From Candidatus Cloacimonadota bacterium (GTDB lineage Bacteria; Muiribacteriota; UBA6191), in assembly GCA_023954715.1 (NCBI GenBank), contig JAGSHD010000001.1:556468-600611 (forward strand): a stretch of DNA of 44,144 nucleotides. The letters are read 5' to 3'. Position 1 is the first letter of the stretch. Every line of letters begins with the position of its first letter. Made by a program: the position numbers and the translations under genes. This document shows, piece after piece, positions 1 to 7,768 of this stretch. A model generated the notes under the pieces. The model saw nothing but the letters and a program-made list of their open reading frames with translations, ran no database searches and was not told the origin of the DNA.

Positions 1-750
1 CTCAGGTAATCTACTCTTAGGATAAAAACAGACCAAAGGACTGGGTTTTTCAAAATTTTTGCTTTTTTTCAAAGAAATTGAAATCTTTATTTGTGGTAGC
101 TCTTCAATGGCTTCCAGATGAATCGATTGAAAACTAAAATCCCAGTCTATAACTTTGAATACACTTTCAAAATTTAGATCTTGGACACTTAAAATTGACC
201 GATCAACGATAAATCGAATCTGTGAATCTCTCGACCATATAATAGAGCAAGGATGAAACTTTTTCCAAGGCATGAATGTATCATAGTCATCCTTCCAAAA
301 TACTTTGGCTCCATAACTTTCTTGGGCTGAATAAAACAAGTATTGAGTACAATCTGTAACTTTCAACAACACTTCGCCTTCATCTAGCTTCAACATTTCA
401 ATATCGAAACACTCTAATTTAAAAGCTGCCAGTAAAAAATCCCTTAAAAAGTTTTCATACAATATTACGTACAAAATCTCTGGATTTTTTGTATATTCGT
501 CTAACTGATACAGTGACCACAACGGACTTTTTACAAAGTTTTTAGGTTTTTCATTTATATCAACAACTTCTATGCCATTTTCAATAAATAATGAGCTTTC
601 ATACTCACTATAAACCTTGTTTTCAAGACAAAAATCCAAACCCTCACGAGAGCTATATACCTCTTGTACTAATAGTTTAGGACAAGAGTGCATCCATCGT
701 AAAAGATAGGACTTAAGATAAGTCTCTTTTTCAAATTGAATCTGTTTCAT
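1..750 (-). CDS. hypothetical protein, 3' end truncated by the window edge (at least 250 aa)
   Basis: I translated the minus strand by hand from the ATG at 750..748 (MKQIQFEKETYLKSYLLRWMHSCPKLL...) and it stays open to position 1. It is absent from the supplied ORF track only because no stop lies inside the window. It sits 28 bp downstream of the 88-aa ORF on the same strand. No recognisable domain. Confidence 0.5.
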   Translation of the reverse strand, partial: MKQIQFEKETYLKSYLLRWMHSCPKLLVQEVYSSREGLDFCLENKVYSEYESSLFIENGIEVVDINEKPKNFVKSPLWSLYQLDEYTKNPEILYVILYENFLRDFLLAAFKLECFDIEMLKLDEGEVLLKVTDCTQYLFYSAQESYGAKVFWKDDYDTFMPWKKFHPCSIIWSRDSQIRFIVDRSILSVQDLNFESVFKVIDWDFSFQSIHLEAIEELPQIKISISLKKSKNFEKPSPLVCFYPKSRLPE

Positions 751-778: not shown

Positions 779-1045
779 CTATCTTTGTATGATTGTCTTA
801 CGCTCCGCCTGGGCTTCTTCTACTTTTACATCATCACTTTGTATCTGGACGGGTTGCCTATTAAGCTGGATACCATCTATATCAGACAAATTCAATCCAT
901 TAGACTCTAAAATTTTGTTTACTAACTCTTTGTGATCTTCTTCGTGTTCAAAGGGTAATGCGTCGCCATCTGATTCATAGTCAATCAGTAGTTCTTGCTT
1001 TCCGTTTGTTGTATTTTTTTTTAATGTTAGGGTTATCTTTGACAT
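779..1045 (-). CDS. small acidic protein (88 aa), unknown function, translationally coupled to the upstream FtsH-like gene
   Basis: Its start codon overlaps the stop of the protease gene (TAATG at 1043..1047 on the minus strand). It is D/E-rich (DYESDGDALPFEHEEDHKE) with no TM segment and no motif I recognise. Confidence 0.5.
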   Translation of the reverse strand: MSKITLTLKKNTTNGKQELLIDYESDGDALPFEHEEDHKELVNKILESNGLNLSDIDGIQLNRQPVQIQSDDVKVEEAQAERKTIIQR

Positions 1046-3114
1046 TATGCCCCCTCTTGTCCTTGAAACAGTTTTTCAATATCAACTCTTTCAAGAGTTT
1101 CCTTGAGTATTAATTCTTCTTTTAGTTTATGTAGCATGTCTAATCTTGACTCTAATATTTGACGTGCTTTTTTCTTAGCTCTATCTAAAATCTCATCGAT
1201 TGCTCGATCTCTTTTATTTAAAATGTCAGTGGACATGTTTTTATCATCCACCACTCTTACCCCAAAGGCTTCTGACATTCCTAGTACAGACACCATTTCT
1301 TCTACTAACTTATTTGCTCGATAGATGTCATTTTGTGATCCAATACTCACATCTTTAAAGACCAAGGATTCGGCCTCTCTACCACCCATAAAAACGATCA
1401 AATCAGCTAATAACTGTTTTTTAGTAATGACATATTTATTTTTACGACCAACGTGCTGCACATATCCCAAAGCATCGGTATAGTCAGAATTAATGGAAAT
1501 CCTTTCTACATCAGTACTTTCTTTGATGCTTAAAGCCACAAGTGCATGGCCTGCTTCATGGTAGGCTACTACTTCTTTTTCTTCTGCATTTAAAACTACT
1601 TTGGTTTTTCCGCCATGCATAGCATCATATAGGTCTTTATCAGTAAATTCATTACGATTTTCTCTGAGTTGAACTCTTTTTAAGTAGCGCATGATTGCAT
1701 TTAAATGATCACCCGTATATTGACTCCCTGTCATAGCGTCAGTAGTTTCACCTGTTTTTCTTGTTAAGAAATCAAGCTGTCTATCATCTAATCCTAACTT
1801 CATTTTTTGATTGTACAAAGTTAAAACTGCTGCCCGATCTGTCTTATCAGGAAAAGGAATCTCTACTTTTAACTCAAAACGACCTGGACGTAAAAGTGCT
1901 GGATCTAGAGAACTTACAAAGTTAGTTGTCCCTACTATAAATACAAGCTCTTCTTTTCTGAATCCATCCATCTCAGTTAACAGCTGGTTTACCATAGAAT
2001 GATTCACTTCTGTTGAAGACCCACTATCTCTTGCACCAGCAAAAGAGTCTAACTCATCAAACACAATAATAGAAGGAGCCGATTGTCGAGCCTTGAAAAA
2101 TACTTTTCGGATGTTTTCTTCACTTTGCCCAACCCACATAGACTTCAACTCTGGTCCAGACACAATAATTATTGAAGCATTTAATGAAGTAGCCATCGCC
2201 TTGGCAAAAAATGTTTTACCTGTTCCGGGAGGACCATGAAAAATCAATCCTTTAGGAATAATAGCATCTATTTCTTTTAACTCATCTTCATCGCTTATCT
2301 CAGCCCGACGTTTTAAAATCTCTAAAATTTCTGACCCTAGCTTTTCTTTTACTTGCCCATATCCCCCAATGTCTTTTTGCATATCTACTAGAGGGATTTC
2401 CATGTCACTAGCAATGGACATTTCTCGTATCTGCGAAATTACCTTACCACTATCTTCAGGAAAATCGATCCCATCCAATCTTTGTAAAATTTGTCTTAGG
2501 CGAACCGGATTTAAACCAGAAACATATTGATATAAACTTTGAAAATTAAATGCTGGTGGAAATTTTCTAGCTTCTCTTTGAAGAATTAATCCATCCAAAC
2601 ATTTTCTATCTATTCCAAGTAGCTGCTTTTTAGCAGGAAATAGGTTTTCAATTACTTTTGAAAATGCAAAATACGGATCTTTAAAGGCCAAAAATACAAT
2701 ACGGGGGTTTTCATACAGTAGAGGTAAAATCTCTCTTGCCTCAGTAGTCAAACCTTCATTAGCAGAGTTGCTAACCAACAAATCTAAATGAGGCAATACT
2801 AAGACTTTATCCTCACTAGAGTTTCGCACCCAATGAGTAATTTGTAAAATCATGTTTCTTAGAACACTACCACTATCTTGAGCTCCTTCTGGAATTGCTC
2901 TGCCATCGAGAAACTCTAAGGTATACCCTTGATTTTTTAACTTAGTTCGTACGCACATATACAACCAAGGTATCAATTGTTTTTCGCACTCTAACAAAAC
3001 TGATACACCAGAAGACAGCTTTTGTACTGTCCATGCTATCTCACTGTTATAAGCGTATTCTAGGGCTTGTTTTTCTGATATTTCATTTGGAAGATTTTCA
3101 ATTTGAATTGTCAT
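1045..3114 (-). CDS. FtsH-like AAA+ ATPase / M41 zinc metalloprotease lacking transmembrane helices, with a ~285-aa N-terminal domain of unknown type
   Basis: Walker A GPPGTGKT, Walker B IIVFDELDS, second region of homology LLRPGRFELKV, zinc motif HEAGHALV. The downstream segment MGGREAESLVF...GSQNDIYRANKLVEEMVSVLGMSE is typical of the FtsH peptidase domain. The N-terminal 285 aa are hydrophilic (no TM) and carry no motif I recognise. Confidence 0.85.
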   Translation of the reverse strand: MTIQIENLPNEISEKQALEYAYNSEIAWTVQKLSSGVSVLLECEKQLIPWLYMCVRTKLKNQGYTLEFLDGRAIPEGAQDSGSVLRNMILQITHWVRNSSEDKVLVLPHLDLLVSNSANEGLTTEAREILPLLYENPRIVFLAFKDPYFAFSKVIENLFPAKKQLLGIDRKCLDGLILQREARKFPPAFNFQSLYQYVSGLNPVRLRQILQRLDGIDFPEDSGKVISQIREMSIASDMEIPLVDMQKDIGGYGQVKEKLGSEILEILKRRAEISDEDELKEIDAIIPKGLIFHGPPGTGKTFFAKAMATSLNASIIIVSGPELKSMWVGQSEENIRKVFFKARQSAPSIIVFDELDSFAGARDSGSSTEVNHSMVNQLLTEMDGFRKEELVFIVGTTNFVSSLDPALLRPGRFELKVEIPFPDKTDRAAVLTLYNQKMKLGLDDRQLDFLTRKTGETTDAMTGSQYTGDHLNAIMRYLKRVQLRENRNEFTDKDLYDAMHGGKTKVVLNAEEKEVVAYHEAGHALVALSIKESTDVERISINSDYTDALGYVQHVGRKNKYVITKKQLLADLIVFMGGREAESLVFKDVSIGSQNDIYRANKLVEEMVSVLGMSEAFGVRVVDDKNMSTDILNKRDRAIDEILDRAKKKARQILESRLDMLHKLKEELILKETLERVDIEKLFQGQEGA

Positions 3115-3779: not shown

Positions 3780-4834
3780 TTTCTTACCTCGTTTGTTGCC
3801 ATATATTCAAGTTGTTTGTCGTAGATTTCTAATACAGGGTCTACTCTTTTTACTATCAGTCTTTGAAGTTTTTCAGCAATTTTAAAGTTTTCTTCAACGA
3901 AACCAATACTTTGCATTTCGCGTTTGACCTCAAGTATTTTATTTAGAAACTTCTGAAATGAAGACCTTATCTCAAGAATGACACCATATACATGTTTCTC
4001 TTCTAATGATTCAAAAGATTTCATTTCTAGATATCTATTTTTATTTAATAGTCCATTTTGTGAAATTCGATAAAATATCTCAATAGGAAGATAAAACAAA
4101 CTCCAAACTTCGTCTTTTATTCCTATAGAACACAACTCTATCAACTTTTGCAATACTAAACCAATTTCTTGCTGAACTACTTCATAATTTTTCAAATGAA
4201 ATTCAGACTCCCATTGCACAAAACTTTCTACATAATAATCTGTAGAAGCTATCATATAATATTGCTCTGCACTGCTTAACTCATTCCATCTAGGCATAAT
4301 TGATAGCGTATGGTATGAAAAATTAAAGGATGATAGAGGCATAGATTTATACAACTCGCTAAAGCGACTCATGAAAGCACGTTTTTTTGTATCTAAAGTC
4401 TTTCTAAACATTAAGTCTAAAAACACTTTTTCTGATCCAGAAAGTTTTCGATCAAACAGGTAACTAGAGTTTTCGTATTCTTCTTCATACCAAAGTTGCT
4501 GAATATCTCTTAAAACCATTAAAAAGTTTATACTAATCTTATACTCAGCTTCTAAGTCCCAAAATCTACAAAACTCTGCTATTGTACTCGTTTTATAAAC
4601 TCTGTTTTGCCAAGCTGAAGGCATGACTACATCATTCATAATCCAATTTTTTAATATTGAGTTTAGAACCTCTAAGCCACGGCTAGAAAACTTAAAACCT
4701 CTTGGAAACGATACTGGAGGAAAATAAGAAAATGCTGCTCCAATATCTCCATTTTTGATGCGAGTAAGAAAACTTAACAAATAATAATCATTGGCTGGTA
4801 ACAAGTTTTTTTTGCCAATATTCAAATGCGTCAT
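3776..4834 (-). CDS. hypothetical protein (352 aa)
   Basis: Long ORF with 4-nt ATGA overlaps to both neighbours (radical SAM gene upstream, 192-aa ORF downstream). No motif I recognise. Confidence 0.6.
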   Translation of the reverse strand: MTHLNIGKKNLLPANDYYLLSFLTRIKNGDIGAAFSYFPPVSFPRGFKFSSRGLEVLNSILKNWIMNDVVMPSAWQNRVYKTSTIAEFCRFWDLEAEYKISINFLMVLRDIQQLWYEEEYENSSYLFDRKLSGSEKVFLDLMFRKTLDTKKRAFMSRFSELYKSMPLSSFNFSYHTLSIMPRWNELSSAEQYYMIASTDYYVESFVQWESEFHLKNYEVVQQEIGLVLQKLIELCSIGIKDEVWSLFYLPIEIFYRISQNGLLNKNRYLEMKSFESLEEKHVYGVILEIRSSFQKFLNKILEVKREMQSIGFVEENFKIAEKLQRLIVKRVDPVLEIYDKQLEYMATNEVRK

Positions 4835-5412
4835 TTTTTAACTCGCTTCAAGTTTAAAACAGGAAAACCATGAACGCTTAAAGAGTTTCGTTTTAAAACA
4901 AGCTCTACTTGATTTCCTTTTTGAAACTCATCCATTTGATCTTGATAACGGTTCGTTAAAAAATGAATATTTTGGTTACTAGAACCCACCCATCGTCTAC
5001 TTGTTTGTCTTTGCGATGGAAGATATGGACCATCAACTAATAAATCCACAAATTGTAAAACCCTAGCCTTAATAGGATCCTTTTCAATTTCACTTAGATA
5101 ATATCCACTATAGAGCATAACACCAAGGTTTTCAGATTGTATAGCACTAAGGAGTTTGACTAATTCTTCGCTTTGGTCTAAAGGTTCACCACCTAACAGA
5201 CTAATCCCCTCGATATTATGAGTGTGTTTAGAGTTTTGGATGTTTAATTTTAAATTTTCAATGGAGGTTTGGGTGCCATTAGACCTGTTAAAAAGATGGG
5301 GATTACAACAATCTTCGCATCGAATACTACAACCGCTCAACCATAACGCATATCGCTTAAATGGTCCTTCGACTATTGTATGTTCTTTGATATCACCAAT
5401 ATATAAGCCCAC
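4831..5412 (-). CDS. radical SAM activating enzyme, NrdG/PflA (glycyl-radical-enzyme activase) family
   Basis: N-terminal LSGCSIRCEDCCNPHL fits the CX3CX2C cluster motif, flanked as in E. coli NrdG (SGCVHECPGCYNKSTW). GISLLGGEPLDQ matches the NrdG GISLSGGDPL SAM-binding motif. The size (193 aa) is typical of this small-activase subfamily. Confidence 0.8.
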   Translation of the reverse strand: MGLYIGDIKEHTIVEGPFKRYALWLSGCSIRCEDCCNPHLFNRSNGTQTSIENLKLNIQNSKHTHNIEGISLLGGEPLDQSEELVKLLSAIQSENLGVMLYSGYYLSEIEKDPIKARVLQFVDLLVDGPYLPSQRQTSRRWVGSSNQNIHFLTNRYQDQMDEFQKGNQVELVLKRNSLSVHGFPVLNLKRVKK

Positions 5413-5817: not shown

Positions 5818-6825
5818 TTATGAAATCTCTTGGATCAAATGTAAAATCATTTGTTTTGGTGCAATCCCGATCTGGGATAACAAAACCGGAAACATAGAAA
5901 TCGGTGTCATTCCTGGCAGAGTATTTACCTCATTAATATATATTTTATCATTCTCTAAAAAGAAGTCAACTCGTGCAAATCCCCTTCCCCCAAGGGTTTT
6001 AACAACATTGATTGCAGTAGTTTGAATCATTGTGTTTATGTGAGGAGATAACTCTACAATGGAGGCTTTAGACTCTTCTGATTTGTATTTTGCTTCATAA
6101 CTATAAAAGGAGTCATTAAAAGTGAGTTCTCCAATGGAAGATGCGCGCCACTCACCACCAATTTCAATTACTGCACATTCAATTTCTCTCCCAATACATT
6201 CGGGTTCTATCAATACCTTATTATCATGTATAAAAACATCATTCATGGCTTGAGTAAAGTCATCCGTAGGCTCAACCCTTTGCACGCCAACTGATGAACC
6301 CTGTCTACTAGGTTTTATAAAAATAGTCTGGTTTGCAAAAGGTCTTTTTAAGTCATCTCCTTTGCTAAACCATTGATAATCTAAAACGGGATAGCCTTTA
6401 TCTTGCAAAACTAATTTAGATAAAACCTTATCAAAAGTAAGTACTGAACTCTTAGCATCAAATCCTGCATATTTTATATTCAAACATTCAAATAGATGTA
6501 AAATTTTACCATCTTCACAAGATAAACCATGAACCATTGGTAATACATCAAAAGATGCATAGCCATTTTCTAGACAAGCTTCTTTAATACATCCCACCGA
6601 ATACCTTTTACCCTGCCCATTATATTCTAATAATGTACCTTGTCCTTGACAAAAGCTATAGTCATTGTAAACAGATATCGTAAAATCTTTATGTAAATAA
6701 ATTATAAAAGGGTCAGCATAGTCTCTAGGAAAGTTTTCATAGATAAATCGTCCTGAACTCAAAGAAATAGGCGCCTCCATTCCGGTACCACCCACTAAGA
6801 TGGCTATGTTTTTATCTGTGCTCAT
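5818..6825 (-). CDS. ddl: D-alanine--D-alanine ligase
   Basis: ATP-grasp protein whose C-terminus EVNTLPGMTPISMFPVLL matches the Ddl signature (E. coli RFLEANTSPGMTSHSLVP). I moved the start to the internal Met (MSTDKNIAILVGG) because a perfect AGGAG lies 4 nt upstream of ATG 6825..6823. The track ORF (to 6912) has a 29-aa extension that looks spurious. Confidence 0.85.
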   Translation of the reverse strand: MSTDKNIAILVGGTGMEAPISLSSGRFIYENFPRDYADPFIIYLHKDFTISVYNDYSFCQGQGTLLEYNGQGKRYSVGCIKEACLENGYASFDVLPMVHGLSCEDGKILHLFECLNIKYAGFDAKSSVLTFDKVLSKLVLQDKGYPVLDYQWFSKGDDLKRPFANQTIFIKPSRQGSSVGVQRVEPTDDFTQAMNDVFIHDNKVLIEPECIGREIECAVIEIGGEWRASSIGELTFNDSFYSYEAKYKSEESKASIVELSPHINTMIQTTAINVVKTLGGRGFARVDFFLENDKIYINEVNTLPGMTPISMFPVLLSQIGIAPKQMILHLIQEIS

Positions 6826-7036
6826 ATTTCTCCTAAAAGAAAAATTTAATCGAAAATATCTTAAATTCTCTCGAAACCATTTTAACTTGTTAAAATTCAA
6901 AGTATACTCCATAATATCGGTTAAAATTAGTTACGATTTTAAAGATAACAATAAATTGAATCTATCTTTTAATGAGTTACATAGTTTATGCTCGAATTGT
7001 TACTGTATATTTCTTTTTGTCTATAAACCTTTAATT

Positions 7037-7768
7037 ATGATTCAAAATAACAAAATTCTAAATATCGCCCATAGGGGCTCTTCATTAGTTTGTCCAGAAA
7101 ACACCATTGCAAGCTTTCAAGCTGCCACTTTAGAAGGTAGTGATTATTTAGAAATTGATGTGCGACTTACTAAAGACAAACAAGTTATTATCATGCACGA
7201 TCGTAAAATAAATCGTACCTCAAATCAAAAAGGCAGAATCCGAAAATACACCTTAGAGCAATTAAAACGTCTCGATATAGGCTCTTGGTTTCATAGTGAC
7301 TTTAAAGACCAACGGATATCAACTCTTGAAGAGATTTTAGACTTGTTTGATACCCAAGGTATTATTGTAGATGTAAAAGAGCTAGCCATTGAAAAATATG
7401 TAGTAAGTATCTTAGAGCAATATGCTCATCGAGATATTATCATTTCATCGTTTCATTGGGTTATACTCAAAAAGTTTAAAAAACTAAACCCTAAACTTAA
7501 CTTAGCCATTTTAATTCCACGAAAATTTGGTTGGAGACGAAAGTTTAAAAAAGCAAAAAAGCTTCAATTGTACTCCATTCATATTGAGCAAAGTATTTTA
7601 AATCAAGATATGGTAAATACGGCACACACACTAGGCTTAAAAATCATTCCGTGGAGTTCAAAATATATGCATGAAGGCAGACTTCGCCAAGTTTTATCCT
7701 ATCAACCCGATGGCCTAATTAATGATTATCCTCAAGTTGTTCATAAGCATCTTCACTCTATCAAATGA
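7037..7768 (+). CDS. glycerophosphodiester phosphodiesterase (GDPD, UgpQ-like, cytoplasmic)
   Basis: NIAHRGSS near the N-terminus is the GDPD catalytic His-Arg motif (cf. UgpQ IVAHRGGG). I trimmed the start to the first in-frame ATG (MIQNNKILNIAHRG) because the track ORF runs across the ddl start on the other strand. Confidence 0.75.
   Translation: MIQNNKILNIAHRGSSLVCPENTIASFQAATLEGSDYLEIDVRLTKDKQVIIMHDRKINRTSNQKGRIRKYTLEQLKRLDIGSWFHSDFKDQRISTLEEILDLFDTQGIIVDVKELAIEKYVVSILEQYAHRDIIISSFHWVILKKFKKLNPKLNLAILIPRKFGWRRKFKKAKKLQLYSIHIEQSILNQDMVNTAHTLGLKIIPWSSKYMHEGRLRQVLSYQPDGLINDYPQVVHKHLHSIK

Follow-up and report, generated by a model that had tools for sequence, protein, structure and literature searches.

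We analyzed a 44,144-nucleotide (nt) window of a Candidatus Cloacimonadota bacterium assembly (GCA_023954715.1, contig JAGSHD010000001.1, positions 556,468 to 600,611), which carries a minus-strand gene for an FtsH-like protein that joins AAA+ ATPase modules to an M41 zinc-metalloprotease domain. The gene lies in an operon transcribed in the order small open reading frame (ORF), radical S-adenosylmethionine (radical-SAM) enzyme, 352-amino-acid (aa) protein, fvmX5, FtsH-like protein, fvmX3-analog, and a large ORF (Table 1). An identical protein, from a Candidatus Cloacimonetes metagenome-assembled genome (MAG), is labelled 'AAA family ATPase' in NCBI. We show that the gene encodes the FtsH component of a simple-type FtsH-MoxR-vWA ternary system, one of the predicted conflict systems described by Kaur, Burroughs, Iyer, and Aravind (eLife 2020, PMC7159879). 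The locus, compact and AT-rich, exemplifies the simple type and comes from Cloacimonadota, a phylum that the paper's section on the FtsH ternary subsystem does not list.

Reading frame and catalytic modules of the FtsH-like protein

In-frame stop codons lie a few codons 5' of the ATG, which therefore leaves no N-terminal extension and no hidden membrane anchor, and sequence comparison shows that homologues share the start residue. No transmembrane (TM) helix was found in the protein using 19-residue Kyte-Doolittle windows; the maximum mean (1.46) falls on a core AAA beta-strand, and the protein is therefore predicted to be soluble. Its motifs include Walker A (GPPGTGKT, residue 294), Walker B (IIVFDE, 349), and HEAGH (519), and Pfam recognizes AAA at residues 290-420 and Peptidase_M41 at residues 507-682 (E values around 1e-41, Table 1). 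In an alignment of 114 full-length homologues, at least 90% kept each of the P-loop, the MWVG pore loop, Walker B, the sensor-1/second region of homology (SRH) segment TTNF...DPALLRPGRFE, HEAGH, and the third zinc ligand Asp596. To judge by sequence, the AAA+ module containing these motifs (D2) and the M41 protease are both intact and predicted to be active. The initial annotation had described an FtsH paralogue without a membrane anchor, with a start bounded by a stop and with complete AAA+ and M41 modules, all of which agrees with these results.

The alignment to the FtsH model TIGR01241 starts at residue 247 of the protein, and residues ~243-289 therefore belong to the active AAA module as its usual N-terminal helix. 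Residues 247-683 align full-length to the solved cytosolic regions of FtsH from Thermotoga and Thermus (2ce7/8vw9). The scores against FtsH models were 298 bits for TIGR01241 (cut-off 600) and 189 bits for PRK10733 (cut-off 1008), which identifies the predicted product as a relative of FtsH and excludes an FtsH orthologue. A search of the window for a second FtsH or AAA gene found none. Comparison of the window proteins with PHROGs returned generic AAA and NrdG-like matches and nothing further that was informative.

Predicted fold and conservation of the N-terminal domain

The part preceding the active module, here called D1, gave no Pfam match even at E<=10. Its AlphaFold2 (AF2) model is confident (mean predicted local distance difference test (pLDDT) 87.7, predicted template modelling score (pTM) 0.83) and runs from a helix through five strands alternating with helices to a small helical bundle, the order of an AAA+ large subdomain followed by its lid. 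Two fold searches with D1 both led to AAA+ proteins. Foldseek returned 354 PDB matches at E<=1e-3, and the top 50 were all AAA+ proteins of the classical clade (E 1e-6 to 6e-5, 8-16% identity), the top matches being katanin, Rix7, proteasomal Rpt subunits, p97/Cdc48, Ycf2-FtsHi, the i-AAA ATPase domain, and Vps4. By this model and its motifs, D1 is a catalytically dead AAA+ module. At the predicted P-loop site, the strand ends in E42-C43-x-K45 and a helix begins at once, leaving no glycine-rich loop. In the Walker B strand, VLVLP108-H109-L-D111 stands in place of hhhhDE (h, hydrophobic), with Asp-Glu replaced by Pro-His. None of the 114 homologues has a Walker A or hhhDE motif in D1, and the relic residues are conserved among them: K45, P108, and D111 are invariant, E42 is kept in 113/114, and H109 in 111/114. 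Since the P-loop is deleted, more than mutated, nucleotide binding by D1 appears unlikely. D1 averages 47.5% identity to the query, compared with 59% for D2 and 41% for M41, and at the sequence level it is strongly constrained despite its predicted loss of catalysis.

The initial annotation had instead seen ~285 motif-less N-terminal residues that form a novel domain in place of the membrane part. The missing Pfam match bears out the first half of this description, although the extra part comprises only ~240 residues given where TIGR01241 begins; the novelty was not upheld, because structure prediction and fold searching give an AAA+ topology and an inactive AAA+ module is already in the literature. 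For the same reasons, we regard a recognition domain of new, unrelated fold replacing the membrane anchor as extremely improbable, even though profile comparisons give no significant AAA link and D1 shows the high conservation that an interaction module would show (37 invariant columns in an alignment of residues 1-245 with 27 diverse truncated homologues, 28 sequences in total). The partner-docking half of that proposal is compatible with the explanation preferred here, and docking of partners by the N-terminal domain is plausible by analogy.

The combination differs from known AAA+ machines. The protein shares with canonical FtsH, YME1, and AFG3L2 the MWVG-type pore loop, the SRH, and the M41 HExxH with its third-ligand Asp; unlike them, it has no TM helices or periplasmic domain and carries an extra, predicted dead AAA+ module. 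Action on membrane proteins is not expected. The tandem AAA+ proteins Pex1/Pex6, NSF, p97, and Rix7/NVL lack a covalent protease, whereas the present protein has M41, and compared with tandem proteins that have an inactive ring, its D1 P-loop is deleted, not merely mutated. The Ycf2-FtsHi motor, among the structural matches (8xku, 8xkv), is likewise an FtsH-derived AAA assembly that has lost some catalysis. However, FtsHi is membrane-anchored with a dead protease site, whereas here HEAGH and Asp596 are intact and the dead element is an extra ATPase.

Operon, system membership, and distribution

The initial annotation placed the gene in an operon with likely partner proteins, and the neighbors are indeed closely spaced or overlapping minus-strand genes, of which fvmX5 and the fvmX3-analog match Pfam families of the ternary system (Table 1). 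The fvmX3-analog overlaps the stop codon of the FtsH-like gene by 1 nt, which suggests translational coupling. The radical-SAM enzyme scores 114 bits against TIGR02491 (cut-off 126) and has conserved Cys28/32/35/36. The fvmX6 equivalent occupies the same position as the PF20004 fvmX6 in Labilithrix (Myxococcota) and is linked to it by an iterated hidden Markov model (HMM). The fvmX7 equivalent has a 1054-aa orthologue in a syntenic locus, L002, and is linked by a home-made HMM to a Labilithrix orthologue that matches PF20005. Neither equivalent in the window matches PF20004 or PF20005, whereas their Labilithrix orthologues do; by sequence, the Cloacimonadota versions are divergent. The GC content of the operon resembles that of its flanks.

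Table 1. Features of the operon, in positions of the 44,144-nt window
Feature	Position	Strand	Remarks
fvmX7 equivalent, N-terminal 250 aa of a large helical ~1050-aa protein	1..750	minus	runs off the window at position 1
fvmX3-analog, 88 aa	779..1045	minus	PF20002, E 5e-20; locus tag KC646_02215
FtsH-like AAA+/M41 protease, predicted soluble	1045..3114	minus	ATG start, 689 aa; Pfam AAA and Peptidase_M41
M41 zinc-metalloprotease domain, residues 507-682	1069..1596	minus	PF01434, E 6e-41; HEAGH 519-523, Asp596
D2, FtsH-type AAA+ module predicted active, residues ~246-500	1615..2379	minus	Pfam AAA, E 1e-41; motifs
D1, AAA+ module predicted dead, residues ~1-240	2395..3114	minus	Rossmann-like large subdomain and helical lid
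fvmX5, 192 aa	3201..3779	minus	PF20003, E 1e-27
fvmX6 equivalent, 352 aa	3776..4834	minus	no Pfam match of its own; position and iterated HMM
NrdG-like radical-SAM enzyme, 193 aa, CxxxCxxC cluster	4831..5412	minus	PF13353, E 2e-30
Small single-TM ORF, 50-53 aa	5431..5592	minus	start probably the ATG at 5583

Genes further downstream were read from L002, which belongs to another Cloacimonadota MAG, encodes an FtsH-like protein 88% identical to ours, and has the same flanks as the window (ddl, GDPD, FKBP, dnaB, and rplI). There, the operon continues with the 1054-aa protein, bpMoxR (PF20030, 200 bits), and ivWA (PF19997, 45 bits). PF19997 is the 'vWA domain found in the FtsH ternary systems', and the L002 ivWA also weakly matches its helical N-terminal region. 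In the Labilithrix locus, all eight genes recur in unchanged order, MoxR and vWA included, and Pfam also recognizes fvmX6 and fvmX7 there.

These features correspond to the published system. According to Kaur et al. (PMC7159879), the FtsH component consists of an inactive N-terminal AAA+ module and a second, active one, and the simple type has a radical-SAM gene and a vWA domain fused to a helical N-terminal domain. In the present protein, the fold searches and the 0/114 homologues with Walker A or hhhDE point to an inactive N-terminal AAA+ module, which sequence comparison alone does not detect significantly, and the second AAA+ module has all the features of an active FtsH-type ATPase. The accessory fvmX proteins and the radical-SAM enzyme are encoded in the window (PF20003, PF20002, and PF13353), and MoxR and a divergent vWA protein complete the operon in L002, with its fvmX7-like protein, and in Labilithrix. 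The two-AAA FtsH component and its system have thus been known from comparative genomics since 2020. What goes beyond the literature is the retention of M41 in the simple type, the EHExxH/Arg signature of the 88-aa partner, and the small membrane ORF. Kaur et al. assign the FtsH component, with its two AAA+ modules, a chaperone role in controlled assembly and disassembly; their text does not mention an M41 peptidase, and the supplement holds no searchable mention of FtsH architectures (PMC7159879). By contrast, the present subfamily keeps a complete, conserved M41 domain, and the simple-type 'FtsH' component is, by sequence, a complete ATP-dependent zinc protease, more than a chaperone.

A D1 profile scan of one genome per species found relatives in 452/185,579 species, mainly Planctomycetota (Gemmataceae, Pirellulaceae, and Isosphaeraceae), Myxococcota, and Cloacimonadota-like MAGs, and the cassette recurs in Planctomycetota, Myxococcota, and Cloacimonadota. 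We counted components around the best 80 loci over all ORFs, with HMMs that had been iterated starting from proteins of Cloacimonadota and Labilithrix, and considered only loci with enough flank. In 56/66 loci the fvmX3-analog was in its expected position, immediately after the FtsH-like gene, and in 57/74 fvmX5 preceded that gene. The expected positions of fvmX6-like, fvmX7-like, and radical-SAM genes were occupied in 54/71, 42/55, and 44/68 loci, respectively. MoxR (24/54) and ivWA (15/47) were probably under-detected by weak home-made HMMs. A gene order kept across three phyla, the rarity of the family, the 1-nt overlap with the fvmX3-analog, and scores far below the FtsH equivalog threshold make it very improbable that the protein is a housekeeping cytosolic quality-control protease whose neighborhood is incidental, an idea that would agree with the intact catalytic motifs, the housekeeping neighbors, and the GC content.

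Against 1.84 billion cluster representatives, the D1 profile matched 382 clusters at E<=1e-3, among them several other architectures. Relatives of ~975 aa (P0020-P0023 and P0029) contain a dead D1, two active AAA modules, and M41, which by sequence amounts to a duplicated active motor and would give four tiers. One relative (P0255) is a TIR-EAD1-D1-D2 fusion without M41. Others, of 590-665 aa, have an extra N-terminus of ~110 aa, D1, and D2, and no M41; one of these (P0226, loci L086-L087) sits with fvmX1, bpMoxR, and fvmX2, a marker of the complex type, which makes the protease domain a feature of the simple type alone. These distant relatives with the same D1, together with the chaperone role assigned by Kaur et al. 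(PMC7159879), speak for a pseudo-protease or pure chaperone whose M41 is merely structural, as in chloroplast FtsHi. A merely structural domain would be expected to lose its motifs, whereas HEAGH, Asp596, and the nearby M41 motifs are each kept in at least 90% of the 114 homologues, and we therefore consider such a protein quite improbable. Separately, some relatives carry inteins in the active D2 (P0122 and P0131), one with a LAGLIDADG endonuclease.

Proposed mechanism and partner proteins

FtsH and YME1 form hexamers held by the protease ring, in which aromatic pore loops thread the substrate into the M41 chamber. Tandem AAA+ proteins can include an inactive ring, such as D1 of Pex1/Pex6 and D2 of NSF. 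By analogy with these machines, we hypothesize that the FtsH-like protein would form a three-tier stacked hexamer. In it, the dead D1 ring would substitute for the TM and periplasmic part of canonical FtsH, stabilize the hexamer, and serve as an entry platform or scaffold on which system-specific partners dock. The fvmX3-analog is the first candidate partner because it is adjacent, overlaps by 1 nt, and is the most frequently retained neighbor; it could act as adaptor, regulator, or substrate, and fvmX5, fvmX6, and fvmX7 would be the next candidates. The MWVG pore loops of D2 would thread the bound protein into the M41 chamber. Together with the MoxR-vWA chaperone pair, the protease would degrade or disassemble a system-encoded protein in a regulated manner, and this would be the switch that releases or activates an effector arm, namely the NrdG-like radical-SAM enzyme and, in this clade, also a small membrane peptide.

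As an explanation of the whole locus, ternary-system identity combined with this three-tier mechanism is, in our judgement, probable. Several points weigh against it. Profile-profile comparison of D1 with D2 (hhalign) was non-significant, both with the 114 close homologues (probability 0.65%) and with ~190 diverse rows (probability 1.6%, P=0.03), and the AAA+ assignment of D1 therefore rests on predicted structure. The ~190-row alignment is colinear over 198 columns in the register that the fold predicts (VLLE--CEK with IFHGPPGTGKT, VLVLPHLD with IIVFDELD, and FKDP with SLDP of the SRH); a proof from sequence alone that D1 is an AAA duplicate was dropped in view of the two probabilities. The hexamer, the docking role of D1, and the substrate are all inferred by analogy. 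MoxR and vWA lie outside the window, so that membership rests on the syntenic orthologue. The operon is flanked by housekeeping genes (ddl, dnaB, and rplI), with no defence island. PADLOC-DB v2 gave no system-specific defence match for the operon proteins: its matches were weak or generic (AAA models IetA and TRIP13 for the FtsH-like protein, pVip at E 1.6e-4 for the radical-SAM enzyme, and three generic AAA matches at E>=1.5e-4, to RtcR-type models, for MoxR), and it returned nothing for the fvmX3-analog, fvmX5, fvmX6, fvmX7, ivWA, or the small ORF. To our knowledge, multicellularity is not known in Cloacimonadota, and the published association of FtsH ternary systems is with multicellular bacteria (PMC7159879). 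A literature search for experiments on members of FtsH ternary systems found none. A role in conflict or immunity has been predicted in the literature, and our analysis adds only circumstantial support for it, namely the patchy cross-phylum spread with conserved gene order and the TIR-EAD1 fusions.

The fvmX3-analog has 2786 relatives in a large protein database. Alignments of 53 and then 129 homologues show an invariant, HExxH-like E33-H34-E35-x-x-H38 motif and an invariant R63; S25 joins them in the larger alignment, and D28, L30, and P31 vary little or not at all. We found no discussion of this EHExxH motif in the main text of Kaur et al. (PMC7159879). The AF2 model, a beta-hairpin and one helix, is poor (pLDDT 57, pTM 0.32), which suggests that the protein may fold only on a partner. 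In several Planctomycetes (L005, L025, L058, and L055), the FtsH-like gene and the fvmX3-analog are the only recognizable pair, with no radical-SAM, fvmX5, fvmX6, fvmX7, or MoxR gene nearby.

The small ORF is the only membrane element of the operon by Kyte-Doolittle analysis, with one strong TM helix (19-residue mean about 3.0) and a conserved Cys within it. In 10 loci of the Cloacimonadota-like clade (including L002, 7607-7759, and L007-L013), it immediately precedes the radical-SAM gene, and the window and L002 copies differ by 13 synonymous and 19 non-synonymous codons. The HMM detected it in these 10 loci only; outside the clade, we saw no clear counterpart in Labilithrix, whose high GC content yields spurious ORFs. 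The literature predicts a 'peptide effector', and by its sequence the small ORF is a candidate peptide or membrane effector of this kind.

The same genes could be read differently, as a biosynthetic or maturation machine for a radical-SAM-modified peptide or protein, with the FtsH-like protein as processing protease or unfoldase and MoxR-vWA as cofactor-insertion chaperones like NorQD, CbbQO, and CoxDE. The frequency of the radical-SAM gene, the small conserved ORF directly upstream of it in this clade, the intact M41, the lack of a PADLOC match, and a housekeeping context common to two Cloacimonadota would all fit, and many MoxR-vWA pairs mature metal centers or complexes (PMC7159879). However, the small ORF is restricted to 10 loci with none evident in Labilithrix, pairs of FtsH-like protein and fvmX3-analog exist without a radical-SAM gene, D1-D2 relatives are fused to the effector-type domains TIR and EAD1, and the vWA domain is of the degenerate 'ivWA' type. 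Overall, we find a biosynthetic role unlikely.

The ternary-system explanation can also be taken further. The M41-bearing subfamily would then represent a new class of soluble three-tier AAA+ protease in which the near-invariant D1 relic pocket (E42, C43, K45, P108, H109, and D111) acts as a sensor or docking gate, the fvmX3-analog (EHExxH, Arg63) is an obligate partner serving as metal-binding cofactor or pseudo-substrate that controls proteolysis, and proteolysis serves as execution switch for a suicide or immunity system built on the radical-SAM enzyme and the membrane peptide. These elements are not described in the main text of the 2020 paper (PMC7159879), and we rate the extended version as speculative and rather unlikely. 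Walker B E354, H519 in the protease site, D1, and the HExxH of the small partner offer handles on MoxR-vWA switching. For annotation, the assignment accounts for a large family whose members now carry just the labels 'AAA family ATPase' or 'cell division protease FtsH'.

Upstream of the operon, the listed ORFs for D-Ala-D-Ala ligase (ddl; 5818..6912, minus strand, 364 aa) and GDPD phosphodiesterase (6800..7768, plus strand, 322 aa) share 113 nt at their 5' ends (6800..6912). Their L002 orthologues have 343 and 240 aa, and both genes probably begin further inside the listed frames, ddl for instance at MSTDKNIAILVGG.

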